This document shows positions 3,049-32,054 of a stretch of DNA of 64,000 bases, one piece after another. The notes under the pieces are model-generated. The model worked only from the letters and a program-made list of their open reading frames with translations, ran no database searches and had not been told where the DNA came from. Source of the DNA: Spirochaetia bacterium (GTDB lineage Bacteria; Spirochaetota; Spirochaetia; SZUA-6; Bin103). Position 1 is the first letter of the stretch; the number at the start of each line of letters is the position of its first letter. A program made the position numbers and the translations under genes. The stretch lies in NCBI GenBank assembly GCA_965215345.1, contig CBDCDL010000001.1, positions 448,251 to 512,250 on the forward strand, given 5' to 3'.

Positions 3049-4322
3049 TGCAGCAGCAGCCGGCGGCGGCGCAACGCGTCGATGCGGGCGGCAAGGAGCT
3101 CGACCGGCTCGTCGGGCTCCAGGCGGATGATGGGCACGCCGACCTCGGCAAGCTGGCGCGAGGCGGTGTCGGTCTCCATGCGCCACAGCGTCACCGCCGC
3201 GGCTTCACTCGGTGTGGCGCCGTACACGGGTGCCAGCGCCAGCGCGGGGTTGATCACCACGGCGGCCACGTCATAGCGGCGGCTGGCCAGGTTGAGCAGC
3301 GTGTCGGTGAAGCGCACGTCGATCAGAGGTGTAAAGGCGGCGATCAGCGCCTGTGCGGGCAGGATCTGCCGCGGCACCTTGGTGATGTCGCGGTCGACGT
3401 CGCTCTCGCGGGCGCGCACGTCGGTGAGGAACTCCAGGATCCGGTACTGCTGGCGGGTCCCCAGGTTGGGGCTCACCCAGCGCAGCAGGCCGGACAGCTC
3501 GATGCAGCCGACGCGGTTGTTGCCGGTCAGGAAGTAGCGCGCCAGCGCGGCGACGATGCGGGTCGCCTGGTCGAGCACCGTGGAGCCGAACGCCCCGGCG
3601 TCCTCGAATGCATCCAGCAGCAGCACGATGTCGGCGTTGCGCTCGCGCGTGTACTCGTTGACGTACATGCGGCCGTTGCGCTGCGTGGCGCGCCAGTTCA
3701 CGGTGCGCAGCCGGTCGCCCGGCACGTACTCGCGCATGCTGGCGAACTCCAGGCCCTCGGAGGCTTCGCGCGAGGGGTAGTTGCCGACGTTCACCTGCGT
3801 GTGGAACGGCCGGATCGGGCGGCTGACCGAGTCGACCCGCGGGTAGGCGGTGCAGATCTTGGGGTCGCTCCACTCCGCCTCCCACATGATCATGCCGGAG
3901 CCCGTGTAGGCGCGGTGGAACAGCCGCCCCTGCGTGAAACGGGCCCGCCGGTCGATACGCAGGCGGTAGCGGCAGGTCTCGGTCTGACCGGGGCCCAGCG
4001 ACACGATCACGCCGTTGCGGCCGGAGACCAGCGAGGCGCCGGCCGGCAGCGGATCGATCACCTCCGCGATTGGCACCGCGGTGCCGGCGTGGACGGTGAA
4101 CTCGACGTCCACCTCGTCCCCCTCGAACAGCGTCAGCCGGGAGATGCTGTGGCTGAAGCGCAGGCGCGGCTGGCGGTCGCCGAGCAGCGCGGCGACGATC
4201 GCCACGGCGAACGTGGCGCCGATCATCACCAGCTCGATGCGCCGCAGCAGCGCCGCGAACACCAGGCTGACCAGGGTCAGCGCCAAGTAGGCGACGAAGC
4301 GGGAACCGAAGTGCTTGGTCAC
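3045..4322 (-). CDS. DUF58 domain protein (MoxR-associated, vWA-like)
   Basis: Carries the DUF58 signature block ...NVGNYPSREASEGLEFASMREYVPGDRLRTVNWRATQRNGRMYVNEYTRERNADIVLLLD. It follows a MoxR ATPase gene. Confidence 0.75.
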   Translation of the reverse strand: MTKHFGSRFVAYLALTLVSLVFAALLRRIELVMIGATFAVAIVAALLGDRQPRLRFSHSISRLTLFEGDEVDVEFTVHAGTAVPIAEVIDPLPAGASLVSGRNGVIVSLGPGQTETCRYRLRIDRRARFTQGRLFHRAYTGSGMIMWEAEWSDPKICTAYPRVDSVSRPIRPFHTQVNVGNYPSREASEGLEFASMREYVPGDRLRTVNWRATQRNGRMYVNEYTRERNADIVLLLDAFEDAGAFGSTVLDQATRIVAALARYFLTGNNRVGCIELSGLLRWVSPNLGTRQQYRILEFLTDVRARESDVDRDITKVPRQILPAQALIAAFTPLIDVRFTDTLLNLASRRYDVAAVVINPALALAPVYGATPSEAAAVTLWRMETDTASRQLAEVGVPIIRLEPDEPVELLAARIDALRRRRLLLQ

Positions 4323-5400: not shown

Positions 5401-5985
5401 TCAGGTGATGTCGCCCGCGTCCGCCCGTTCCAGCTCCTGCACCACGCCGGCGAGCTGCGCAAGCGGGACACCCCGGCGTATCAGCCGTTCCGGCAGCCGA
5501 TCGGCCAGCTTGTCGCCGGGCCGCCCGAGCGCTTCGATGCGGTCGAGGATGCGACGGCTATCGGCGGTACTCACCAGCCCGGACGCGACCGCCGCCAGCC
5601 GGGGCAGGAACACGCGCCGGTAGTACCGCGTGCTGGTCTGCGAAAGCTCGATCTCCGCGGTGATCTTCGTCAACGGCGTCGGCACCGCGGGCTGCCCGCG
5701 CCGGGCGGCCTGCTCGCTCAGCACCCGTTCCAATCGGGGGGCTTCGTGGAACGCCAACTCGCTCTGCACCGAGCTCACGGCCACCACGGCGGCCAGCGAC
5801 GCGACCGTGGCGCCGATCGCGAGCATCACCTCGTCCAGGTCCTGCACGCCGGACGTGAACGTGACCAGCAGGACCAGGCCGGCGGTAAGCGCCGCCAGGC
5901 CGATCGTGCTCAACAGGCGCCGCGTCCGGCTGCGTCCGGTCTTGCGAACGCGGTACGCCGACGGCCCCCAGGTGGAACTGCTCAT
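5401..5985 (-). CDS. Hypothetical membrane protein (DUF4129/DUF4350-like MoxR-operon accessory)
   Basis: One TM segment (LLSTIGLAALTAGLVLLVTF). It sits directly upstream of moxR on the same strand. Confidence 0.45.
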   Translation of the reverse strand: MSSSTWGPSAYRVRKTGRSRTRRLLSTIGLAALTAGLVLLVTFTSGVQDLDEVMLAIGATVASLAAVVAVSSVQSELAFHEAPRLERVLSEQAARRGQPAVPTPLTKITAEIELSQTSTRYYRRVFLPRLAAVASGLVSTADSRRILDRIEALGRPGDKLADRLPERLIRRGVPLAQLAGVVQELERADAGDIT

Positions 5986-6138
5986 CTGACCAGGATCATA
6001 CCACTGCAGCCAGCCACCGGTGAACCCTGCGGTACGGCGCCTGGCACACGACGCCGCCTCTTGTCAGAAAGACAAGAGACATCTTCAATGCCTAAATACC
6101 AGCACTAACCGACGAATGCCTTCTGGCAAGGAATGACG

Positions 6139-6600
6139 CTACTGCAGTATGGATTCGAGCAACGTGTTGACCACGGAGTCTGAGTCTGTTGTGAACTCCC
6201 CACTGGTTTCCTCGGCGCCATCACCCTCGCCGCAGGATGTCAACAAATATCGAACTGGCGTGCCTTCGGGAGGAATAACCAACATCAGCTCCTTACCGCT
6301 TACACGATCCCATTCCAACTCTATACCACCGTCGGCCATGGGAGCAACGAAGGGTTCGCCCGCCTGGGAAAAGATGTGTCTATCTATCGCGACCAATATG
6401 CGGGTGCATTTCCTTACTGAGGAGCGAGCAATAGCTACAGAGCCGTAGCCATCCCAGTCGGGCTTCAGGTCAGCCAGGAGCTTCAACCGTTCTGCAAGTT
6501 CAGGGTGAGACCTTCGTAGAGACGATCTATCGTGGAAAGGTTCGAACAAGGAGAAAGGTTCGAGCAAGGAGTCTACAGCGTTCTTTCGGAAGACGTTCAA
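6139..6600 (-). CDS. Orphan hypothetical protein in a lower-GC islet
   Basis: A 153-aa ORF with protein-like composition and no recognisable motif. Local GC is clearly lower than the flanks. Confidence 0.4.
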   Translation of the reverse strand: MNVFRKNAVDSLLEPFSLFEPFHDRSSLRRSHPELAERLKLLADLKPDWDGYGSVAIARSSVRKCTRILVAIDRHIFSQAGEPFVAPMADGGIELEWDRVSGKELMLVIPPEGTPVRYLLTSCGEGDGAEETSGEFTTDSDSVVNTLLESILQ

Positions 6601-6907
6601 GATAATTCGTCTCTGATCTTGTGCGCCTGCTTCGACAGACTCCCAAGTGCCGTGAGGTCAGGAGTGTATGCATAGTATATGTGTGTTGGCAACCATGGGC
6701 ATAGGAAGGCATGGGACGTGGGCGACAGGATGTAGTCGAGAGTTTCGACCGTCGTGGAGCAGTGGGGCCGCGCCGCAGGAGGAAGGAGGTGGGAGGAGCC
6801 CGGAAAGGCGGGTGCAGGCTCGGCGGTCGGGAGCTGGATGATGATGAGGTGGTTGAGCTCTCGGGGACTGTTGAGCGGCGTCGCTCATCGAGCGTGACCG
6901 CAGGAGG

Positions 6908-20712: not shown

Positions 20713-21014
20713 TCTCGGGGGACGGTCGCTGTCTTTGTCGTTCTCTAATAAAGCTTCCGATCGTCTGGATGATCCAAAGTAGTATCCGAATACTGCTCCA
20801 GCTATAGGTCCCAGATAAGATGCCCACGTTCCTACGATGGTGTCCAAGTCGGCGGGCGAGATCACGCCGAGTACCAACACCAGGAGTGCCAAGACGGGTC
20901 CGCCAAAGAACGCTACGGCGGTAATGAGCGCGAGAGGCTCCGTATCCTGGAGTCGTTCGGTACCGTGGACGGATTCGTCGATCTCGCCGTCTCGTCGTCC
21001 CGCACGTGCCTGAT

Positions 21015-21461
21015 CTATTGTAGCGCTATGACGTCGCCGACATCCGGTACTATTCGCGAATAGAGATCAGGAACGCCTTCCACTTCTCGATGCCAAGCGC
21101 CCCAAGGTGCCTTTTCCTGCACGTATCCGTTGACTTCAGTTACATAGAAATGGTCTTGAGCCAGGAAGATCTTGAAGTTCACGATCTCTTGCTGATCCCA
21201 TCTGAGCCTCAAAAGTCCATGCCGATCGGGGGTTTTTGTCGTGTTGGTGATGGATGCGATGAAGGACAAATCCGTCACTGGTTCGACCTCGTACTGTATG
21301 CTCGGGGGAACATCTTCGTTGTACAGCAGCTCCGTGAGGCTCTCGATCCAGTGTATGATGACGTCGTTCGAGTCGCCCCCCTCGGCCGAATCATGATCGT
21401 CCGCCGACGCCAACGTAGAAGTCACTATCAGAACGAAACAGGCAATCGTTACCCGCAACAT
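21015..21461 (-). CDS. Secreted hypothetical protein in a lower-GC islet
   Basis: Signal peptide MLRVTIACFVLIVTSTLASA. Local GC is noticeably lower than the flanks. Confidence 0.4.
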   Translation of the reverse strand: MLRVTIACFVLIVTSTLASADDHDSAEGGDSNDVIIHWIESLTELLYNEDVPPSIQYEVEPVTDLSFIASITNTTKTPDRHGLLRLRWDQQEIVNFKIFLAQDHFYVTEVNGYVQEKAPWGAWHREVEGVPDLYSRIVPDVGDVIALQ

Positions 21462-21565
21462 CGTGCTGCTCCAGCGCAAGGATGGCAAACGGCAGAATGA
21501 GTCGTCAACCGGGCTCTCGACGTATGAATCTGTCCGATCTTTCGTGCTGAGCACCACCGGATCAG

Positions 21566-22486
21566 TCATTCCAGCGTCTCGCTCAGCACGCCGTTCGGAC
21601 CCACCAGCAGGACTTCCCCGGATGCGAGTTCGTCCTCCGCGAACTGCAACGCCCTGCCGGGCTCGATCGCCGCGACGGTCGCGTTGTCCGTCAGCGTCTC
21701 GCCGGCCAGCCGTTCCCAGATCACCTCGACGCTCCGCCGTGCGGTCCAGCGCTCATCGTCTTCCCCCTCTACGAAGACGGCGGTCCCCGACCGGCGGACG
21801 GGATCGTGCGCGCCGTCGGTCGTGAGGACGAGTCTGCCTTCGCGCGGCGTGTGCACGAGGTGGCGCTCAGCGAGGATTCCTTCCGGTATGCCGATCGCTT
21901 CGATCAGGCTGTTGTCCGGCTCGGTCGGCTGGTACGGTTCGGGCGGGGTTGCTCCCCTCGCCAAGCGGTCGAGCACTTCGGTATGGCCGGCGTCGGTGTC
22001 ATCGGTGGTGAGGCATCGGAACGGGCGCTCGGGCTCGATCAGGTGCGCCCGCGTGTCACCGGTGTGGGCGAGCATCCCGCTCCGGCGTTCCCAGACCGCG
22101 GCGGTCAGGGTCGTCCCGCCCCGTCCCTTGAGCGCCTCCAGCACCTCCCGTTGCGCGCGCAACACGGCTTCCGCGAGCACGTCGCGGGGCGTGTCGTGCT
22201 CGCCGGACAGGCAGGTCTCGACGACGATTCGCACCGTGTGGCGGCTCGCCCAGCCGCCGTCCTCCATGCCGCCCATGCCGTCCGCAGCCACCACGGCACA
22301 GCGCGGGGAGCGGTAGGTTCCGCGGCGCCAGAGCAGCACCGCGCCGCAGTCCTGCTGCTCCTCGCGCGGGCCCTGCTGCATGCCGAGCGCCATCGCGCCG
22401 TCGGCGCCCGCGTGGATCGCCCCGTCCTCATAGTCGGCGAGGCTGAACGCGTTCAGGATTCGTTCGCGCACGTCAGCCGGCCCCAC
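21566..22486 (-). CDS. PP2C-family Ser/Thr protein phosphatase
   Basis: The DGMGG motif and other PP2C metal-binding blocks. Confidence 0.65.
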   Translation of the reverse strand: MGPADVRERILNAFSLADYEDGAIHAGADGAMALGMQQGPREEQQDCGAVLLWRRGTYRSPRCAVVAADGMGGMEDGGWASRHTVRIVVETCLSGEHDTPRDVLAEAVLRAQREVLEALKGRGGTTLTAAVWERRSGMLAHTGDTRAHLIEPERPFRCLTTDDTDAGHTEVLDRLARGATPPEPYQPTEPDNSLIEAIGIPEGILAERHLVHTPREGRLVLTTDGAHDPVRRSGTAVFVEGEDDERWTARRSVEVIWERLAGETLTDNATVAAIEPGRALQFAEDELASGEVLLVGPNGVLSETLE

Positions 22487-23612: not shown

Positions 23613-25073
23613 GTGCGTGTGGAGGGTATCGGGCGTGCTACCCTCGGCTGCGTGAGTGACGGAACCAATCTGGAACGGCTCGACGCCGAGCGGCGCCTGT
23701 TCGTCGACCTGCTCGACGTCGCCCGCCGCGACAACGTGAGCCGCACCTTCCACCAGGCGCGCAAGCACGGCCTGCCGGTCATCGCCCAGGAAGAGCCGTG
23801 GGAGCGGATGGGCGGCATGACCGCCTCGGTCATCCACGACGACGAGGAGGGCGTCTTCAAGGCGTGGTACATGGCCGGCATGTATGCCCCCGACAAGGAG
23901 CACGTGCAGTGCTTGGCGCTGTCCGACGACGGCATCAACTGGACCAAGCCCGTGCTGGGCCTGCACGAGGCGCTCGGCAACACGGACAACAACATCGTCG
24001 TGCCGGCCGAGTACCACGACGGCAGGGACCACTTCGAGACGATGATGAAGGATCCCATGGATCCCGACCCGGAGCGCCGCTACAAGGCGATCGGCTGGGC
24101 CAGCTACGACTGGGACGGGCCGCTGAGCGGGATCTATACCGGCACGTCGCCCGACGGCATGCGCTGGACCTTCACCCCGGAGCCGATCATCCGCTACCAC
24201 CCGCGGCCCGGTACCGCCGACCTGGGGCCGATCGGCGACGCGCAGGCGATGATGATCGACACGCGGCGCACGCGCTACGTGGCGATGCTGCGCGGTGCGG
24301 GCAATCATCCCGGCTGGCGGGTCATGTCGGTCAGCAAGGACTTCGTCACCTGGACCAGGCCGGAGCGCTTCCTGTTCCAGCTCAACCACGAGGAGTCGCT
24401 GTACAACAACAACGGCTTCGTCTACGGGGCGCAGTACCTGGGCATCCTGACCCACTTCGACCGGCGCGCGGAGCACCAGTCGCAGACCCTCCGGCTGCTG
24501 ACCAGCCGCGACGGCGACGTGTGGATGCGGGCGCCGGCGGCCGAGTCGCTGGTCGGGCTGGGCGAGGTCGGCGACTGGGACCGCTTCCAGATCATGCTCA
24601 CCGGCGCGCCGCCGGTTCCGGTCGGCGATCGCCTGCATATCTACTACCGCGGCACCTCGCGCCGCCACAACAAGGTGGTGGGCGAGTTCGAGCCCCGGAT
24701 CGACCCGGACCAGGAGCGCGGCGGCATGTCGATCGGGCTGGCCACGCTGCGGCTGGACGGCTTCGCCTCCATCGACGCCAGCTACGACGGCGGCGCCATC
24801 ACGACGGTGCCGTTCGACTTGGCCGGAGCCGAGTTGCACGTCAACGCCAAGTGCGACTTCGGCCGCATCGGGGCGGAGCTGCTCGACGAGGGGTACCGCC
24901 CGATCCCGGGCCATGCCGCCGACGACTGCATCGCAGTCAGCGCCGATGCCACCGACCAGGTCATCCGCTGGCGCGGAGACGCGGCGGGCCGGCCGCTTTC
25001 GGCCATCACCGCGCCGGTGCGGATCCGCTTCCACATGGCCAACTCCCGCCTCTACAGCTACTGGCTGCAGTGA
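23613..25073 (+). CDS. Beta-propeller glycoside-hydrolase-like protein, paralog 3
   Basis: Same family as the genes at 6908 and 8479 (SDDGINWT, SPDGMRWT, SRDGDVWM). The start codon is uncertain (GTG at 23613). Confidence 0.55.
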   Translation: MRVEGIGRATLGCVSDGTNLERLDAERRLFVDLLDVARRDNVSRTFHQARKHGLPVIAQEEPWERMGGMTASVIHDDEEGVFKAWYMAGMYAPDKEHVQCLALSDDGINWTKPVLGLHEALGNTDNNIVVPAEYHDGRDHFETMMKDPMDPDPERRYKAIGWASYDWDGPLSGIYTGTSPDGMRWTFTPEPIIRYHPRPGTADLGPIGDAQAMMIDTRRTRYVAMLRGAGNHPGWRVMSVSKDFVTWTRPERFLFQLNHEESLYNNNGFVYGAQYLGILTHFDRRAEHQSQTLRLLTSRDGDVWMRAPAAESLVGLGEVGDWDRFQIMLTGAPPVPVGDRLHIYYRGTSRRHNKVVGEFEPRIDPDQERGGMSIGLATLRLDGFASIDASYDGGAITTVPFDLAGAELHVNAKCDFGRIGAELLDEGYRPIPGHAADDCIAVSADATDQVIRWRGDAAGRPLSAITAPVRIRFHMANSRLYSYWLQ

Positions 25074-25119
25074 CGTCTCGAACCACGGGGCTACCCGGAA
25101 CCCCACCAAGGAGCACCGC

Positions 25120-26634
25120 ATGATCACCGTCCGGAACAGCGTCCCCAACCCCGTCGTCGAAGAGGCGGTCCTGTTCCCGTTCGACACCTACAGTTGCCCG
25201 TTCTCGGCCGGGCTCCGGCTGCAGCTCATACCGGGCAAGATCCCCGGCCGCGGCAACCCCATCGTCGTCGCCACCGGCGAGCCGGGGGCGCCCGACGACT
25301 TCACCACCCGCTTCTACGGCACGGTCATCCCCATCGACGGCGAGTTGCGCATGTGGTACCTGGCCCGGAGCACCCTGGACGCGGACGGCAGCAACGGCGG
25401 CCAGCTCCGCTGCTGCTACGCCACCAGCACCGACGGCGTCCACTGGGACAAGCCCGACCTGGGCCTGATCGAATTCAACGGTAGTAAGCACAACAACATC
25501 GTCAACCTGCGTGCCGGCCGCTGCGACTTCGCCGCCCTGCCGGTGATGTACGAGCCGGACGACCCGGACCGGGCGCGGCGTTTCAAGTGCGTCTTCGAGA
25601 GCGAGGCGTACGGCAACCAGTTCGCCGTCGCCTACAGCGCGGACGGCCTCAACTGGACCGAGTCGCCTGCCAACCCGGTCGGCCCCGGCCTGGAGCAGAC
25701 CGGGCTGATCCGCCACAATGGCTGCTACTACGTCAACGGCCAGGGCGGCGCGCACTACACCACGGGTCGGGCGCTGGCGACCTTCGCCTCCTACGACTTC
25801 GAGACCTGGACGCAGGCGTCCTGCCTGGGCTTCCGCCGCGACATGGTGCCGCCGGAACCGCTGCTCTACGATCCGCTCTCCTCGGCGCCGAAGGCCAGGT
25901 GGAACCAGAGCGAGGAGGTGCACCTGGGGGCCGGCCTCTGGGACCGGGGCAACGTGATCCTGGGCATCTACGACATCTGGCACGGCACGCCCACCAGCGA
26001 CCGCCAGCTCATCTCCATGGACCTGGGCCTGCTGGTCAGCCACGACGCCCTGCACTTCTCCGAGCCGATCAAGGACTTCCCGATCCTGCCGGCCTACGAG
26101 GAGGCCGGCGCGGTGGTCGGCAAGCCGCCCACGGTCAGCCACGGCCAGGGCATGATCAACTGGGGCGACAAGACCATGCTGTGGTACGAGGCGTGGGGCA
26201 ACCTGCCGGTGGAGGTGCGCCTTGCCACCTGGGAGCGCGACCGGATCGGCTACTTCGAGGCGATGCGCGGCGAAGGCGGCCACCTGGTGACGTGTCCGCT
26301 GGCCGGCGCCACCGAGTTCAGCGCCAACGTCGGCGGCCTTGGCCCGTACACGGAGCTGCGTTTCGAGCTGCTGGACGAGGGCTTCCATCCGCTGCCCGGC
26401 TTCAGCGGCGCCGACGCCGCGGTGCTCACCGGGCTGGAAGGAGCGGGAGAAGGCCAGGAGGACCTGGTCCCGGGTCAGCAGAGCCAGCGGGAGGCCGCGC
26501 CGGCCGCCGGACTGCGCGAGCCGATCCGCTGGCAGCGCCCCCTCCCGGCCGACGCCGGCGCGCTGCGGCTGCAGGTCACCTTCGCCGGCATCCGCCCCGA
26601 GGACGGCCAGCTCTACGCGATCTACGCCCGCTGA
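25120..26634 (+). CDS. Beta-propeller glycoside-hydrolase-like protein, paralog 4
   Basis: AAGGAG ribosome-binding site 7 nt upstream of the ATG. Blade motifs STDGVHWD and SADGLNWT. Confidence 0.6.
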   Translation: MITVRNSVPNPVVEEAVLFPFDTYSCPFSAGLRLQLIPGKIPGRGNPIVVATGEPGAPDDFTTRFYGTVIPIDGELRMWYLARSTLDADGSNGGQLRCCYATSTDGVHWDKPDLGLIEFNGSKHNNIVNLRAGRCDFAALPVMYEPDDPDRARRFKCVFESEAYGNQFAVAYSADGLNWTESPANPVGPGLEQTGLIRHNGCYYVNGQGGAHYTTGRALATFASYDFETWTQASCLGFRRDMVPPEPLLYDPLSSAPKARWNQSEEVHLGAGLWDRGNVILGIYDIWHGTPTSDRQLISMDLGLLVSHDALHFSEPIKDFPILPAYEEAGAVVGKPPTVSHGQGMINWGDKTMLWYEAWGNLPVEVRLATWERDRIGYFEAMRGEGGHLVTCPLAGATEFSANVGGLGPYTELRFELLDEGFHPLPGFSGADAAVLTGLEGAGEGQEDLVPGQQSQREAAPAAGLREPIRWQRPLPADAGALRLQVTFAGIRPEDGQLYAIYAR

Positions 26635-26733
26635 CCGCAGGTCTGCGGTGCTTCGCTCCTTGTAGGTGCGAGGTGTAACATGTGCGTCGGCCAGTCTCTG
26701 GCACCAAAGTTCGGCGATTCACGCAACGGATCT

Positions 26734-26763
26734 TGACGATCCCGGCGCCTGCGCAGTATAGTG
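26734..26763 (+). promoter_or_regulatory. Sigma70-like promoter candidate (TTGACG - 18 nt - TATAGT) in the AT-rich leader
   Basis: Read directly: cTTGACGatcccggcgcctgcgcagTATAGTg. Confidence 0.3.
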
Positions 26764-26923
26764 TCAAGCGTATTTGTGACGAAGACGACAAGGTCGTTCA
26801 TGGGTCGGGTGGTGTCTGATTCCACTATATTGCACCGACAGACGATCTTATTCCGAGTCACATATCCCTGCAAGCGAAGGAGGCTGGAAGCCCATGTAGA
26901 TTCAACAAGTGCGTTTGCAAGTA

Positions 26924-26959
26924 CGATATTGGATCACATACAGCTAGGAGTGGTATAAT
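26924..26959 (+). promoter_or_regulatory. Promoter candidate with an extended -10 (TGgTATAAT) and a TTGGAT -35-like hexamer
   Basis: Read directly: TTGGATcacatacagctaggagTGGTATAAT. Confidence 0.3.
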
Positions 26960-27436
26960 GACCTTCAAGGTGTTTCCAATAGACAACAACAGAAGGAGGG
27001 TCCTTGAAAAGCAAGGGATCGAAAAACAGGAAATTTCGTTTATACACATTATGCATGAATCTGAACATGGGTTGCATGTCAGGCAGGAAAAAAACGCAAG
27101 AAATGTCGCTGTTCAAGGAATGCGCTGAGAATTACGAAGATGATCGTTTTCATGATTTACATACTCAACGGTTTTCCCAGGATATAAGAGCGGATGTAAT
27201 CTGACGCACCGTGAGTGACCTTGCCAGCGAGACTCTGGCCTGCGTAAGCAGAGCTATGAGGGGAGCTGGTACGGTCACTTGCTTGGTCCAGCACCGCAAC
27301 TGTATTATTGTGACAAGTGCTGGTTCTGGTAAGACGCATGCTATGGAGTCTCTAAGCGGTGATTTGTTTCGTTCGGCTTGTGGGATCCCGTTAGGGACTG
27401 TTACACGAGGTCGATCTCAAGGAGAGAATCAAGAAC

Positions 27437-28354
27437 ATGCAACAGATGAAGGATTCGAAATTGACGCGAATCGGAGTGTTCTATGACGGAAGTTACTTCT
27501 CACATGTGAGCAACTATTACTGCTACGACCACCAGCGGAAGGCGCGCATCAGCATTTCCGGCCTGCACGATTTCATACGGGAGGAAGTCGCGAAGAACGA
27601 GCAGGCAGACGCTCGCTATTGCCAGATCGTGGATGCGCATTACTTTCGGGCGCGGATGTCCGCCGCTGACGCCCAGGAACGGGACGCCCTGTATGGTGAA
27701 CGGGTCTTTGAGGACGTTCTCATCAACGCCGGGGTTACGACCCACTTCCTGCCAACCACGTCGCGCGGGGAAAAGGGCGTCGACGTCTGGCTGGCCCTCG
27801 AAGCGTTCGACCTCGCCATCCACAAGCAGTTCAATGTCGTCGTTCTGGTTGCCGGAGACGGTGACTACGTGCCGCTGGTTCGTAAGCTCAATACGCTTGG
27901 GGCGAGAACGATGGTCACCGCATGGGACTTCAAGTTCAGCGATGGCAGCGGCCAGGAGCGGGAGACCAGAACGTCCCAGTTCTTGATCAACGAGGTCACC
28001 TACGCGATCATGATGGACCGCATCATCGATGACCGGTCGCGCAGCCAGGACCGTATAGTCAACAACCTGTTCTTGGCCGCGGCCCAACCGCCTGCTCCGC
28101 GCCGTGTGCAGCCCGCGGCGGCCATCTCGGATGAGCTGCAAGCGGGTGTCATACAGAACATCAAGGATGGCTACGGATTCATAGCTCCCGATTCCGGCGG
28201 CGAGAACCTGTTTTTCCACTGGACGGGAGTGAGAAACGAAGACTTCGAGGAGCTGCGGATCGGCGAACTGGTCCATTTCATCGTCGGCAGCAATGACCGT
28301 GGCCCGTGCGCGGTCGACGTGAGGCGAGTGGAGAACACGAATGCGGGAAGGTAG
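27437..28354 (+). CDS. NYN-domain (LabA-like RNase) protein fused to a C-terminal cold-shock domain
   Basis: NYN blocks (IGVFYDGSY..., EKGVDVWLALEAFD, VVVLVAGDGDYVPLV). The C-terminus carries the S1-like CSD motif GVIQNIKDGYGFIAPDSGGENLFFHWTGV. A good AAGGAG ribosome-binding site precedes the start. Confidence 0.7.
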   Translation: MQQMKDSKLTRIGVFYDGSYFSHVSNYYCYDHQRKARISISGLHDFIREEVAKNEQADARYCQIVDAHYFRARMSAADAQERDALYGERVFEDVLINAGVTTHFLPTTSRGEKGVDVWLALEAFDLAIHKQFNVVVLVAGDGDYVPLVRKLNTLGARTMVTAWDFKFSDGSGQERETRTSQFLINEVTYAIMMDRIIDDRSRSQDRIVNNLFLAAAQPPAPRRVQPAAAISDELQAGVIQNIKDGYGFIAPDSGGENLFFHWTGVRNEDFEELRIGELVHFIVGSNDRGPCAVDVRRVENTNAGR

Positions 28355-28748
28355 GCGAAGGGGACTGCGCGTGACCTACTCAGTCATCTCCGCGACCGCT
28401 CGCAGTAACGGGACTCCGGCGCATGTCGGTGGTGCAAATGGTGTCGCCGAGCGCCTCGCGGTGCAGGTCGTCGGTCGCTCGTGCAGGAGGTGTGGATGCG
28501 AGCGTCGGCTTTGACGTGACGTTGGTCTGCGGGGCCGTGGAACTGTTCGGTTTCCTCGGTCAGGCTGAGCGCCCAGCACGACGTCGGACGGGATCGTCAC
28601 CGCCGTCGTGGACAAAGGTGACCAACCATGCTGCTTTCTCATCGACGGACCACTACCGCGGCACTCCCAATAGCCTGGATGGGTGCGCCGCGCATGCCAG
28701 GTGAGTTGAGAGCCCGATTGCCGGGATGTGGGCCCCGGTGCGTGTCGC

Positions 28749-29213
28749 TTACTCGATCAGCTCCACGATGGCGCCCAGCTCGGCGACGAATCGCTCGTGC
28801 GCCGAGCGGAACGCCGCCAGGGTGGTAGGAATTCGATTCTGCACAATCTGAATGCGGTCCGGGTTGAGCCGCGTGCCGTATAGGTTGCGGAACATGTGGC
28901 GAAACGCGCGCAGCTCATGGATGTCCTGTGCGAGCGATCGATCCAGGAGGCGGGGCCGCAGGTCCTCGATCTCGATCGTCATGCGTTCCACGAGCTCGCG
29001 GTGCCATACCGACGGCGGCAAGTCATTCTCGAAGAACCGGGAGACCCGGAGGAAGTAGGACTCCAGCGCGTTGTAGATGTTGTGAATGGTGTAGGCCAGC
29101 GCCGCCCAGTCCAACTCATCGGTCGCTCCGTGCCGGATGCGGCCGTCGGCTTTCAGGTTGGTCTCGGCAAGGTCGCCGAGAACCTCGGTATCACCGTGCA
29201 ACTCAGCGATCAA
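28749..29213 (-). CDS. HEPN-fold protein (NTase substrate-binding, HI0074-like), partner of the upstream NTase
   Basis: An all-helical ~150-aa protein immediately downstream of a minimal NTase. The family call is tentative. Confidence 0.5.
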   Translation of the reverse strand: MIAELHGDTEVLGDLAETNLKADGRIRHGATDELDWAALAYTIHNIYNALESYFLRVSRFFENDLPPSVWHRELVERMTIEIEDLRPRLLDRSLAQDIHELRAFRHMFRNLYGTRLNPDRIQIVQNRIPTTLAAFRSAHERFVAELGAIVELIE

Positions 29214-29237
29214 TATTGCGACGCGCGCTGCTCTCGT

Positions 29238-29600
29238 TCATACATGAGCCTGCCGTCGATGTTCGACAGCCCGGCTGATCACCGGACTGGCGTTCGGTAG
29301 ATCGACGACGTCGACCTTGAACGGGCTGTCGAGCGCTATCGAGACCAGACGGAGATACTGTGGTGAGTCAACGGCCAGATCCACGTCCGGCTCCCGGTTG
29401 CCCAGGTCGCCGGTAGCCAGCGAACCGAAGAGCACGACCGTGCGGAGGTCGGGGTCCGCCTCAAGGAAGCACTTCGTGAGCCGCTCGGCTTCCGCGAGGC
29501 CGGCCGCTCGCCATTCTCGGCGCATGTGTTCGAGATGAGCCGATCTCTTCGGCGCTCTCGCTGCTTTGAGCCCTTCGGCTACACCACGAAGGAATCGCAT
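29238..29600 (-). CDS. Minimal nucleotidyltransferase (MNT-like)
   Basis: The LFGSLATGDLGNREPDVDLAV NTase motif. The longer ORF extension to 29738 is derived from a fucosidase gene fragment and is probably not translated. Confidence 0.6.
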   Translation of the reverse strand: MRFLRGVAEGLKAARAPKRSAHLEHMRREWRAAGLAEAERLTKCFLEADPDLRTVVLFGSLATGDLGNREPDVDLAVDSPQYLRLVSIALDSPFKVDVVDLPNASPVISRAVEHRRQAHV

Positions 29601-29639
29601 TCCGTTCCTCGTCCACAGCCGGGAGAACGTAGTCGGCTG

Positions 29640-29860
29640 AGACACCGCGTGTCGAGAGTGTCCGCCTTCGATCGAACGCGCTACGCGACGACATTCGTCG
29701 CCGAAGTCCAGGCGGATCACCATCACGGTGCCGGTCATTCGGTTGACCGCTCGCTTCCGTCGTGTAGCAGCGTCGCGCGCTCAGGAGCGACCCGCAGCGG
29801 ATTGAGAGTCAGGCCGGTGCTCTGCGGGGCCGTCGAGCATCTGCCGCACCAATGATTCCG
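29640..29860 (-). pseudogene. Decayed duplicate of the 3' end of the GH29 fucosidase gene
   Basis: About 200 bp is a clear but diverged copy of 30795-31010, with an internal deletion. It encodes ...STGLTLNPLRVAPERATLL...MTGTVMVIRLDFG, against ...STGLILKPLRIAPDRATLL...MAGTVMVIRLEFG in the intact gene. Confidence 0.5.
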
Positions 29861-30344
29861 GCTCAACAAGCACGTCCGAGACACGCTTCCCTAAAGTTTC
29901 AGCGATTGCGGCTAATGTCTTGACCCTGGGCGTCTGTTCGCCGTTCTCGATCCGTACCAGCGTAACGCGTCCAATGTTAGCCGCTCGTGCTAGCTGCTCT
30001 TGAGTCAATCCCGCCGAGTCTCGCAACGTCCTGAGCCGCTCGCCGAGGGTCCGCCTGCCGTGCATGGCTATCGCCTCAACGGTGGACCGGTAGGATTCGT
30101 CACAGTAGTGGCGTGCGAAATCCCAGGGAATCTCAATGTGTTCACCGTTGACCGTGTTGAGAATCATCTGGTATGGGTTCGGCAATTCAAGACTGGACAG
30201 GTCCGTAGCATCACTGATCTCGTCGATATCGCTGTAGGGTATCATGCCTTTGCACCCATCGGCGAAGCTCAACTGGACTCCATTGGCCACTATGTTGGCG
30301 ACCATCATCATCCGATCGGCGTTCTTTACCAAAACCGCATCCAT
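29781..30344 (-). CDS. DUF2442 domain protein with a C-terminal XRE-type HTH
   Basis: N-terminal DUF2442-like region plus the HTH LTQEQLARAANIGRVTLVRIENG. It is paired with an upstream DUF4160 gene. Confidence 0.6.
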   Translation of the reverse strand: MDAVLVKNADRMMMVANIVANGVQLSFADGCKGMIPYSDIDEISDATDLSSLELPNPYQMILNTVNGEHIEIPWDFARHYCDESYRSTVEAIAMHGRRTLGERLRTLRDSAGLTQEQLARAANIGRVTLVRIENGEQTPRVKTLAAIAETLGKRVSDVLVEPESLVRQMLDGPAEHRPDSQSAAGRS

Positions 30345-30347
30345 CGC

Positions 30348-30584
30348 CTATCCTCCATGAATGGCTTCCCACGTGTTCCTGATGTCTTCGACGTGTGTCG
30401 CATATACCTTCAAGATGTCCCTGAAGTTTCCGGGTGGCAGATCGTCCATATAGGTTCCGCCGTTCAGTTCAATGCGGCACACATCTTCGTTGCCAACCCA
30501 AACGTGTACGTGTGGCGGCTCAAAGCTGTTCTCCCGCGTGTTGATAACGAACCGAAACTGTCCTTCCATGACGACGGTCGGCAC
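30348..30584 (-). CDS. DUF4160 domain protein
   Basis: EPPHVHVW motif. Four nucleotides separate it from the DUF2442 gene. Confidence 0.65.
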   Translation of the reverse strand: MPTVVMEGQFRFVINTRENSFEPPHVHVWVGNEDVCRIELNGGTYMDDLPPGNFRDILKVYATHVEDIRNTWEAIHGG

Positions 30585-30785: not shown

Positions 30786-32054
30786 TTACGCGGCCACTTC
30801 GGCGCCGAACTCCAGGCGGATCACCATTACGGTGCCGGCCATGCGGTTGACCGGCAGGCCGCTCAGGCGGAGGTAGGGTGGCTCCTGCCAGTGCCAAGGC
30901 GTGGTCTCCACCGTGACTCGGAGCTCGCTTCCGTCGTTCAGCAGCGTCGCCCGGTCGGGAGCGATGCGTAGCGGCTTGAGGATCAGGCCGGTGCTCTGCG
31001 GGGCCGCGGGGAGGTGGACATAGACGGTGTTCCCGTTGCGCGTGACCAGCACGCTGTCGCGCGGCACATGGTGCTCGCCTCCGTGCATGCCGATCGCGTC
31101 GTCCTCGATCAGCGTCGAGGCGGGCATGGTGCCCTCGAACGCCTCCCGGACCTTGCGGTACCAGTTGCCCACCTGCGCGAGCGTGCTCACGTTCTCCACC
31201 GGCAGGCTGCCGTCCGACTTGGGGCCGACGTTGAGGATGTAGTCGCCGCCCATCGCCAGCACGCGGTCGATGCTCTCGATGATGTGGCGGTCGCTGTAGT
31301 AGTCCTCGTCGGAGCGATAGCCCCAACTCTCGCGGCCGAGCGCCTGCACGGCCTGCGTCGGCGCGCCGAACTCGCGGGCTTCGGGCACGTGCCGTTCCGG
31401 CGTGCCGTAGTCGCCGGGGCTCGGGCCGCGGTCGTTGATCAGGATGCCGGGCTGCAGATCGCGCACCATCTCGTTCAGGCTTGGGTCGTGGTGCTCGGCC
31501 ACGTTCACGTCCCAGAAGAAGTCGCGCAGCGGGCCGTAGTTGGTGCAGAGCTCCCGCACCTGGCCGCGGACGAACTCCCAGTAGGCGGCGAGGTCCGGCT
31601 GGTCGCCGGGGCGCGGACCGAACATCTCGTGGTGGCGCCCCAGGTTGGGGTAGTGCGGGTGGTGCCAGTCGGGGCAGGAGTAGTAGAAACCGAGCGCGAT
31701 GCCGCGCCGCTCGCACGCCTCGGCAAGCTGGGCCAGGATGTCCCGGCCGTACGGCGTGTGCATCACCGAGTAGTCGGTTAGCTTCGTGTCCCACAGGCAG
31801 AACCCGTCGTGGTGCTTCGTGGTGATCACCACGAAGCTCATGCCGGCGCTCTCGGCCGCGACCAGCCACTCATCGGGATCGAAGCGGTCCGGGGCGAAGC
31901 GGTGGACAAGCTGCTCGTAGTCGCGCCGCTTCATGTCGGACCGCCAGAGGATCTGCTCGTGCCACGCCGGGATCGCGTACAGCCCCCAGTGGATGAACAT
32001 CCCCAGCCGCTCCGTGAAGTACCGGTCGCGCCCGTCGCCGAATGGTCTGATCAT
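30786..32054 (-). CDS. Alpha-L-fucosidase (GH29)
   Basis: GH29 blocks (MFIHWGLYAIPAW, TKHHDGFCLWDT...). Length is 422 aa. Confidence 0.85.
   Translation of the reverse strand: MIRPFGDGRDRYFTERLGMFIHWGLYAIPAWHEQILWRSDMKRRDYEQLVHRFAPDRFDPDEWLVAAESAGMSFVVITTKHHDGFCLWDTKLTDYSVMHTPYGRDILAQLAEACERRGIALGFYYSCPDWHHPHYPNLGRHHEMFGPRPGDQPDLAAYWEFVRGQVRELCTNYGPLRDFFWDVNVAEHHDPSLNEMVRDLQPGILINDRGPSPGDYGTPERHVPEAREFGAPTQAVQALGRESWGYRSDEDYYSDRHIIESIDRVLAMGGDYILNVGPKSDGSLPVENVSTLAQVGNWYRKVREAFEGTMPASTLIEDDAIGMHGGEHHVPRDSVLVTRNGNTVYVHLPAAPQSTGLILKPLRIAPDRATLLNDGSELRVTVETTPWHWQEPPYLRLSGLPVNRMAGTVMVIRLEFGAEVAA

Follow-up and report, generated by a model that had tools for sequence, protein, structure and literature searches.

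The window analysed here, the whole 64,000-nucleotide stretch from Spirochaetia bacterium, has its largest low-GC (guanine plus cytosine) patch directly upstream of a gene that joins an NYN/LabA-type nuclease domain to a cold-shock domain (CSD), called NYN-CSD below. GC content is 0.73-0.79 at 26300-26599 and only 0.40-0.54 over 26700-27499, reaching its lowest value of 0.395 at 27000-27199, which bears out the sharp drop described in the original prediction, an account made from the sequence alone. Compared with sister strains, the 802-bp stretch that separates NYN-CSD from the conserved upstream gene is an indel. We consider it probable, at roughly 0.7, that a lineage-specific, horizontally acquired insert of about 770 bp occupies what is normally a spacer of about 40 bp, and that it supplies NYN-CSD with a promoter of its own.

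The spacer upstream of NYN-CSD in related strains

The comparison set consisted of 16 syntenic loci from contigs of metagenome-assembled genomes (MAGs) labelled 'Spirochaetia bacterium', together with L092 and L093, and spacer length was measured from the conserved end of the upstream 504-aa gene as anchor. The syntenic order is PP2C-like gene, fatty-acid hydroxylase, 473-aa gene, 504-aa gene, NYN-CSD, variable genes, a gene with an XRE-type helix-turn-helix (HTH) and alpha-L-fucosidase. Flanking DNA is 92-96% identical between the window and L001-L006, and the 504-aa gene is 94-96% identical to its sister copies right up to the stop codon; window positions 26639-27455 have no counterpart in L001-L006. 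The spacer measures only 28-44 bp in nine of the 16 loci (L001-L004, L006, L008, L010, L012 and L013, the first four of which encode one and the same NYN-CSD protein). It is roughly 120-190 bp long in L015-L017, where the start codons of L015 and L017 are placed about 30-40 nt too far upstream and the true spacers reach up to about 225 bp.

Long spacers are found in L005 (650 bp), L011 (685 bp), the window (802 bp) and L009 (863 bp), and a fifth version, of 629 bp, in L092/L093. Searches with MAFFT, blastn, tblastx and nhmmer revealed no mutual similarity among the five versions, apart from a hairpin element of about 57 nt common to the spacers of L005 (5862-5914) and L011 (E 7e-5), which are otherwise unrelated. 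Long inserts of several unrelated kinds occupy this position, depending on the strain. In the window, similarity to the short spacers (GCGCGTGTC...CGATCTC...AGAGA) is seen over the first ~10 nt and the last ~25 nt of the spacer, and the approximate limits of the insert in Table 1 follow from it.

Recurrence of the insert and history of the NYN-CSD allele

The window's version of the insert recurs only in two short contigs, L007 (98%) and L091 (94%). The former is 1.2 kb long at 3x coverage and holds the last 192 bp of the segment at 98% identity; the latter, a 1,046-bp scaffold from a Tara sample that was reached via the product of a small open reading frame (ORF) within the insert, spans 26676-27694 with about 94% identity in aligned columns. 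L092/L093 belong to the window's NYN-CSD allele class (90% DNA identity, synonymous divergence (dS) 0.17) and have the same upstream gene. Because they share the allele class and carry a different, 629-bp insert, the spacer turns over faster than the gene.

The NYN-CSD gene itself is only 78-80% identical in DNA to its counterparts in the very sister strains whose flanks are 92-96% identical. Allele divergence was compared with L001, L006 and L009. Against L001, NYN-CSD has a dS of 1.08 and the upstream gene one of 0.144, an excess of about 7-fold, with a ratio of non-synonymous to synonymous divergence (dN/dS) of about 0.1 for both; among the other strains too, the dS of NYN-CSD is 2-3 times that of the flanks. 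Since dS is so much higher in NYN-CSD than in the gene next to it at so low a dN/dS, these values indicate that the resident allele was replaced by a divergent, functional one via recombination, or else that an old polymorphism persists at this locus. NYN-CSD is under purifying selection.

The insert differs from its copy in L091 by 46 substitutions in 758 positions (6.1%), compared with 8 at 54.5 synonymous sites (14.7%) in the first 86 codons of the adjacent NYN-CSD gene (Fisher p=0.02). This lower divergence hints at some constraint on the insert.

Promoter-like motifs, hairpin and small open reading frames

Two promoter-like elements had been proposed in the stretch. The first, TTGACG-18-TATAGT (P1), is present and is the sole site with at least 10 of 12 matches on either strand of the whole 64-kb window; in simulated + strand sequence of the same composition, a site of this type arises by chance in 802 nt with a frequency of about 6%. 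The P1 hexamers are unchanged in L091, with 2 substitutions in the P1 spacer and a further one on either side. The second, an extended -10 element (TGgTATAAT, 26951-26959), does exist and is the window's only TGNTATAAT on both strands (chance about 1%, simulated, + strand), but it overlaps the AGGAG Shine-Dalgarno (SD) sequence and ATG 26958 of a candidate small ORF, and its TG is TA in L091, where AGGAG and ATG are kept. The ribosome-binding site expected before NYN-CSD is there, albeit at a rather long spacing, and is likewise kept in L091 (Table 1).

A long hairpin lies between the candidate small ORF and NYN-CSD. The 106-nt stretch that contains it (27195-27300) has a predicted folding energy (dG) of -48.9 kcal/mol and a z of -3.9 on the + strand, where 0 of 200 shuffles were as stable, compared with a z of -1.2 on the - strand. 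All pairs of the hairpin are kept in L091, which shows three one-sided G-C/G-U changes, one change in the GUAA loop and no compensatory double change; this is compatible with a conserved structure, not proof of one. Stable hairpins (z -2.1 to -3.5) are found in the other long spacers too, 100-230 nt upstream of the gene.

Table 1. Features of the 802-bp stretch and its surroundings (window coordinates).
Feature	Position	Strand	Basis or remark
Conserved upstream gene, 504 aa, no Pfam family; stop codon 26632-26634	25120-26634	+	Pfam, synteny
Low-GC intergenic region, 802 bp	26635-27436		GC 0.40-0.54 vs ~0.70 in flanks
Approximate extent of lineage-specific insert relative to ~40-bp sister spacer	26644-27407		Spacer ends resemble short spacers
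Sigma-70-like promoter P1, TTGACG-18-TATAGT	26733-26762	+	Motif scan
Start-stop mini-ORF: AAGGAGG, 10 nt, ATG-TAG	26877-26899	+	Sequence; perfect AAGGAGG
AGGAG Shine-Dalgarno (26946-26950) and ATG 26958	26946-26960	+	Sequence; both kept in L091
Candidate orphan small ORF; 89 codons in L091, 81 in the window after removal of one A	26958-27204	+	L091 comparison
Long stable hairpin with GUAA loop	27211-27282	+	Begins 7 nt after small-ORF stop codon
91-codon 'P-loop' ORF, ...SAGSGKTHAM..., judged spurious	27211-27486	+	Homology search, L091
NYN-CSD ribosome-binding site AAGGAG	27419-27424	+	12 nt 5' of ATG 27437, rather long spacing
NYN-CSD gene, 305 aa; N-terminal PIN-like NYN/LabA nuclease domain, C-terminal CSD	27437-28354	+	Pfam
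HepT-like toxin	28749-29213	-	Pfam HepT-like_2 8e-26
MNT nucleotidyltransferase	29238-29738	-	Pfam Polbeta, NTP_transf_2
187-aa protein with C-terminal XRE-type HTH	29781-30344	-	Pfam, synteny
DUF4160 protein, 78 aa	30348-30584	-	Pfam, synteny; directly upstream of XRE-HTH gene
Alpha-L-fucosidase gene	30786-32054		Synteny; adjoins right end of island

The 802 bp are gene-free; the description of the stretch as non-coding is uncertain in view of the candidate small ORF that starts at ATG 26958. An extra A in an A7 run (27088-27094) splits this ORF in the window into 26958-27128 (56 aa) and the frame of a TTG-initiated ORF, 27004-27204 (66 aa). With A7 it is the TTG frame (27004) that reaches the shared C-terminus; with A6, as in L091, it is the ATG frame (26958). 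Three origins are conceivable for the frameshift: genuine mutation, misassembly or phase variation. Programmed -1 frameshifting was set aside as an explanation because the downstream frame is +1, not -1. The L091 ORF is intact, with 89 codons (P0122) ending at the equivalent of TGA 27202-27204, and P0122 is the only homologue of the small ORF in 5.8 billion proteins, apart from the window's own 56-aa product (P0123). Between the two copies, the ORF has indels of 3 and 21 nt and a shift that is compensated locally; outside it, the indels are of 1, 4, 1, 1 and 1 nt. The substitutions within it (3 synonymous, 4 non-synonymous and a 4-residue cluster) show no synonymous excess. Its product is hydrophilic (maximum 15-residue Kyte-Doolittle mean 0.0-0.8) and an AlphaFold2 model of the 89-aa form, with a predicted local distance difference test score (pLDDT) of 49, is uninformative; Pfam, NCBIfam and PADLOC searches of all ORFs of the window's insert gave nothing above threshold. 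On balance, the case for a protein-coding ORF is weak, the indel pattern speaking for it and the substitutions, the lack of a family match or further homologue and the poor model against it. The start-stop mini-ORF upstream of it sits within a 52-nt block without a single difference in L091.

The original prediction had also noted an ORF fragment with a P-loop. That ORF exists but cannot be recognised as part of any gene: among 1.84 billion representatives, a full HMMER scan matched only a spurious repeat protein, and Pfam P-loop families score 12-18 bits, below their cut-offs of 23-27, with the similarity confined to the Walker A motif. In L091 the GSGKT codons and the frame are destroyed by indels of +4, +1, +1 and -1. 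A fragment of a P-loop NTPase or UvrD-like helicase gene was rejected on these grounds.

Small ORFs also occur in other long spacers. L005 has AGGAGG and a 38-aa, N-terminally basic peptide with a hydrophobic helix (5679-5795), followed by a stable hairpin; L092 has TAGGAGG and a 26-aa, N-terminally basic hydrophobic peptide (507-587), again followed by a stable hairpin. Neither peptide has a family match, and their Kyte-Doolittle maxima (15-residue mean) are 2.6 and 1.9, respectively. In the L009 spacer, GGAGGAGG precedes a 79-aa ORF and then a hairpin. A search upstream of distant NYN-CSD genes found that SD-preceded small ORFs are not a general feature there.

A probable promoter-bearing insert

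Taken together, these observations lead us to favour an acquired, promoter-bearing insert. A divergent NYN-CSD allele may have replaced the resident one by recombination, with the insert now found beside that allele. In short-spacer strains, NYN-CSD would be co-transcribed with the upstream genes. In the window strain, the insert would uncouple NYN-CSD from these genes, and its expression would instead start at a sigma-70-type promoter within the insert, for which P1 is the best candidate. The transcript would then run through the possible small ORF and the hairpin to the NYN-CSD ribosome-binding site, and the hairpin could serve as a terminator, an attenuator or a stabiliser.

Several points weigh against this scenario. 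Both the use of P1 and the co-transcription in short-spacer strains are steps that we infer from sequence. AT-rich DNA is expected to hold promoter-like motifs more often, and a promoter scan of the 2.4-kb neighbourhood gave 3 sites versus 0.9 +/- 1.0 in shuffles. Since the scan found no terminator-like site after the upstream 504-aa gene, some read-through from upstream could take place. Junction analysis found no clear terminal inverted repeats and no unambiguous target duplication bounding the insert. Lastly, in the comparison with L007 the segment shows 4 differences in 192 positions and the gene 2 in 918, a trend opposite to that seen with L091, but L007 has only 3x coverage.

The surrounding island and the NYN-CSD family

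As judged from sequence, the 802-bp stretch is the left edge of a strain-variable, lower-GC island of about 4 kb that comprises NYN-CSD, a HepT/MNT pair and a DUF4160/XRE pair. The HepT/MNT pair is intact in the window, and sister loci have only the MNT part or other genes in its place. Elsewhere the island holds an IS66 element (L001), an IS1380 relic (L011) or a bPH_3-SHOCT gene (L092). The IS66 element, with three genes that include TnpB_IS66 and DDE_Tnp_IS66, lies just downstream of NYN-CSD (L001 7243-9582), and its insertion is further evidence that the island is an insertion hot spot. The DUF4160 and XRE-HTH genes (29781-30584), which have a locally low GC of 0.52-0.55, are likely a toxin-antitoxin-like pair. 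A retron was considered for the island, given the CSD effectors of Se72-type retrons, and rejected: the island genes include no reverse transcriptase domain, and the NCBIfam retron_eff_Se72 match covers the CSD only, at 30.8 bits against a cut-off of 82.

Further low-GC patches (<0.52) are seen in the window at 6051-6750 and 21001-21300; the ORFs that overlap them, 6139-6600 (- strand, 153 aa) and 21015-21569 (- strand, 184 aa), have no Pfam family. The two adjoining genes 5' of the island (23613-26634; ~473-486 aa and 504 aa) are without a Pfam or NCBIfam match and show 92-96% DNA identity in all sister strains.

Both domains of the NYN-CSD protein lie above Pfam gathering scores (NYN, PF01936: E 4e-18, 66.7 bits, cut-off 24.2; CSD, PF00313: E 5e-14, 52.3 bits, cut-off 27), as had been anticipated for this gene. 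The fusion had been called uncommon, which our searches contradict. The best 120 of 3,897 matches all have both domains, with lengths of 277-349 aa and identities down to 53%; almost all of them match the window protein across 95% or more of its length at 53-82% identity (one covers 89%). The closest, at 75-82% identity, come from MAGs named 'Spirochaetia bacterium'. At least 554 GTDB species representatives encode a relative, across many phyla that include Planctomycetota, Chloroflexota, Acidobacteriota, Gamma- and Betaproteobacteria, Desulfobacterota, Campylobacterota, Bacteroidota and Cyanobacteria; in contrast, 2.9 million viral contigs yielded only one full-length copy. With 50-60% identity across phyla, the family is highly conserved and mostly chromosomal. 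About 90 alignment columns are invariant, among them acidic residues expected of a PIN-like nuclease, and D17, E112, D116, E122, D141 and D143 do not vary in 28 diverse homologues. The protein is predicted to be an RNase with a built-in single-strand-binding domain. NYN/LK-nuclease domains are known from sequence analysis to be fused to OST-HTH domains and, in some bacteria, to S1/cold-shock-type OB folds, and such fusions are predicted to be stand-alone RNA-degradation systems (PMC2848206; PMC5499597). Our literature searches turned up no experimental study of any NYN-CSD family member.

Alternative explanations

The strongest rival, though we regard it as unlikely, is that the stretch is decaying foreign DNA without present function, its motifs, hairpin and ORFs being by-products of AT-rich composition. 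The insert has no homologue that we could find in plasmids or phages (blastn of the 802 bp with distant settings) or in JGI metagenome contigs, where a 20-mer scan gave three matches, none extending and all taken as chance; a 23-mer scan detected no viral contig with the insert. Decay would also account for the non-conservation of the P-loop ORF, for a small ORF that is frameshifted in the window with 3 synonymous versus at least 4 non-synonymous changes, and for the four non-triplet indels between the hairpin and the gene, and sister strains manage without the insert. On the other hand, the insert has diverged less than the adjacent synonymous sites, L091 has kept the P1 hexamers and every hairpin pair, and neither P1 nor TGNTATAAT occurs a second time in the 64 kb. 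NYN-CSD, being under purifying selection, needs some promoter once it lies 800 bp from the upstream gene. The original prediction had itself offered the remnant of a foreign insertion as its alternative. The insertion is supported by an indel relative to sister strains that lies beside an allele with a ~7-fold excess of dS, whereas 'remnant' may undersell the segment, because its promoter hexamers and hairpin pairing persist in a 94%-identical copy and it has changed less than synonymous sites.

A second alternative, rather improbable in our judgement, is that the insert is an independent small-gene module with its own promoter, SD sequence, small ORF and hairpin, whose product or RNA partners with or counteracts the NYN-CSD RNase in the manner of an antitoxin, a regulator or a type-I-toxin-like cassette. 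The layout of SD, small ORF and hairpin recurs in the unrelated inserts of L005, L092 and L009, in the window and L091 the ORF follows a good SD, has indels of 3 and 21 nt that keep the frame, and is followed by the hairpin 7 nt beyond its stop, and the island is rich in toxin-antitoxin pairs. These small ORFs are nevertheless dissimilar to each other and to Pfam/NCBIfam families, and most alleles and distant homologues have no such ORF. The window's version is hydrophilic, broken at the A7 run, devoid of a synonymous excess and poorly modelled (pLDDT 49 with AlphaFold2), and by our estimate an ORF of ~89 codons in 800 nt of such composition is not improbable, with ~0.4 expected. A type I toxin-antitoxin small peptide as the product of the window's ORF was rejected for its hydrophilicity (0.0-0.8), hydrophobic peptides being met only in the L005 (2.6) and L092 (1.9) inserts.

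We also considered that the insert is the relic of a mobile element, either an insertion sequence (IS) or a miniature inverted-repeat transposable element (MITE), that landed in a hot spot directly 5' of NYN-CSD, and find this doubtful. At the same position, the L011 spacer contains the N-terminal fragment of an IS1380 transposase (3437-3796; NCBIfam 4e-15, profile positions 2-92 of 419), followed by the ~57-nt hairpin element; that element is common to L005 and L011, and IS66 has a copy just 3' of NYN-CSD in L001. In the window, the 5-nt sequence AGGTC flanks the insert on both sides (26639-26643 and 27408-27412), a direct repeat that may be due to chance, and a 14-nt imperfect inverted repeat (86% complementary) lies near both ends (26649-26662 and 27418-27431). 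The right arm of this repeat, however, is the NYN-CSD ribosome-binding site, present in the short-spacer alleles too, and ten comparable inverted pairs occur in 1.1 kb. Pfam and NCBIfam searches found no transposase ORF or relic in any frame of the window's insert, and neither the 64-kb window nor the ~93 fetched loci contain a second copy. A scan of the window for tRNA and tmRNA genes gave none, and likewise no integrase or att site was seen. Direct-repeat families in 26635-27436 comprise only pairs or triplets of 10-13 nt, and TRF (score >=30) detected no tandem repeats there; a type III toxin-antitoxin (ToxIN-like) RNA array was rejected, there being no tandem direct repeats upstream of NYN-CSD. 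Decaying foreign DNA, a small-gene module and a mobile-element relic all overlap with the explanation of an acquired, promoter-bearing insert, and each keeps some probability.

On a more speculative note, the position 5' of NYN-CSD may be a cassette-exchange site in this clade of Spirochaetia, swapping unrelated AT-rich mini-modules (promoter, SD, short ORF, hairpin) whose small proteins or RNAs tune or neutralise the NYN-CSD ribonuclease. We give this idea a similarly slight chance; if true, it would represent an undescribed, rapidly swapping partner system for a widespread, unstudied RNase family.

The weakest explanation, the one on which the original prediction laid most stress, is a cspA-like RNA thermosensor or cis-regulatory leader, in which a long 5' untranslated region (UTR) refolds with temperature or ligand to control translation. 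Some features agree with it: the whole leader folds better than shuffled sequence on the + strand (z -4.2 with 20 shuffles, -2.5 with 100), 27066-27079 is 86% complementary to the start-codon region, and the hairpin at 27211-27282 is strand-specific. Across a 496-nt stretch, however, folding is not strand-specific (z -2.4 on the - strand versus -2.5 on the + strand). A cmscan of 25500-29500 against Rfam at E<=10, with the cspA thermoregulator model in the library, gave only a chance mir-765 match inside the upstream gene, and at gathering thresholds the whole window and five long-spacer loci gave no match. The hypothesis of a conserved leader fails because homologous loci lack any such leader: nine of the 16 have only the short spacer, the other long spacers are unrelated, and the window segment has nothing in common with what lies upstream of the gene in the 70 to 80 more distant family members compared. 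Nor was covariation found in a leader before orthologous genes, the only material being two close copies without compensatory pair changes, and the CSD here forms the C-terminal part of a nuclease instead of being a Csp in its own right. We therefore consider a thermosensor very improbable and advise against annotating the segment as either a riboswitch or a thermosensor.

Significance and comparison with known systems

The segment itself is an outcome of ordinary islet turnover in a MAG lineage. If the insert does provide the promoter, it would exemplify how AT-rich foreign DNA can rewire the expression of a single gene within a strain-variable islet. Of modest interest is that sister strains repeatedly carry, at one spot, AT-rich modules that are unrelated to each other and combine an SD, a small ORF and a hairpin. 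Two side results may be of use. NYN-CSD represents a large, very conserved and experimentally untouched family, and the much faster turnover of the spacer than of the gene within one clade offers natural 'promoter-swap' variants for studying how this RNase is controlled.

Several known systems invite comparison. The enterobacterial cspA 5' UTR is likewise a long AT-rich region with predicted structure upstream of a cold-shock-domain gene. The window region is five times longer, however, has no covariance-model match and is not conserved among orthologous loci, and its gene encodes a 305-aa nuclease fusion as opposed to a 70-aa Csp. Type I toxin-antitoxin and small-peptide cassettes resemble the insert in their strong SD, short ORF and stable hairpin in an AT-rich spacer, and the L005 and L092 peptides are, like type I toxins, short, N-terminally basic and hydrophobic. 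The window's ORF differs in being hydrophilic, 81-89 codons long and frameshifted, and neither a promoter for an antisense RNA nor a known toxin family was identified. The protein itself recalls the NYN/LabA-like (COG1432) fusions to OST-HTH/LOTUS domains, which share an N-terminal NYN domain with invariant acidic residues and a C-terminal RNA-binding module; in the window protein, this module is a CSD alone.

The closest likeness of the locus as a whole may be to horizontally acquired low-GC islets of the kind that form hot spots for toxin-antitoxin and defence-type genes. It differs from these in that NYN-CSD is present in every strain examined, in that the NYN-CSD family is highly conserved and mostly chromosomal (the single full-length viral copy notwithstanding), and in that no integrase, tRNA or att site is seen at the window. 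It resembles them in having a lower GC content than the core, conserved genes as borders, a content that differs among sister strains, and an allele replacement accompanied by excess synonymous divergence.

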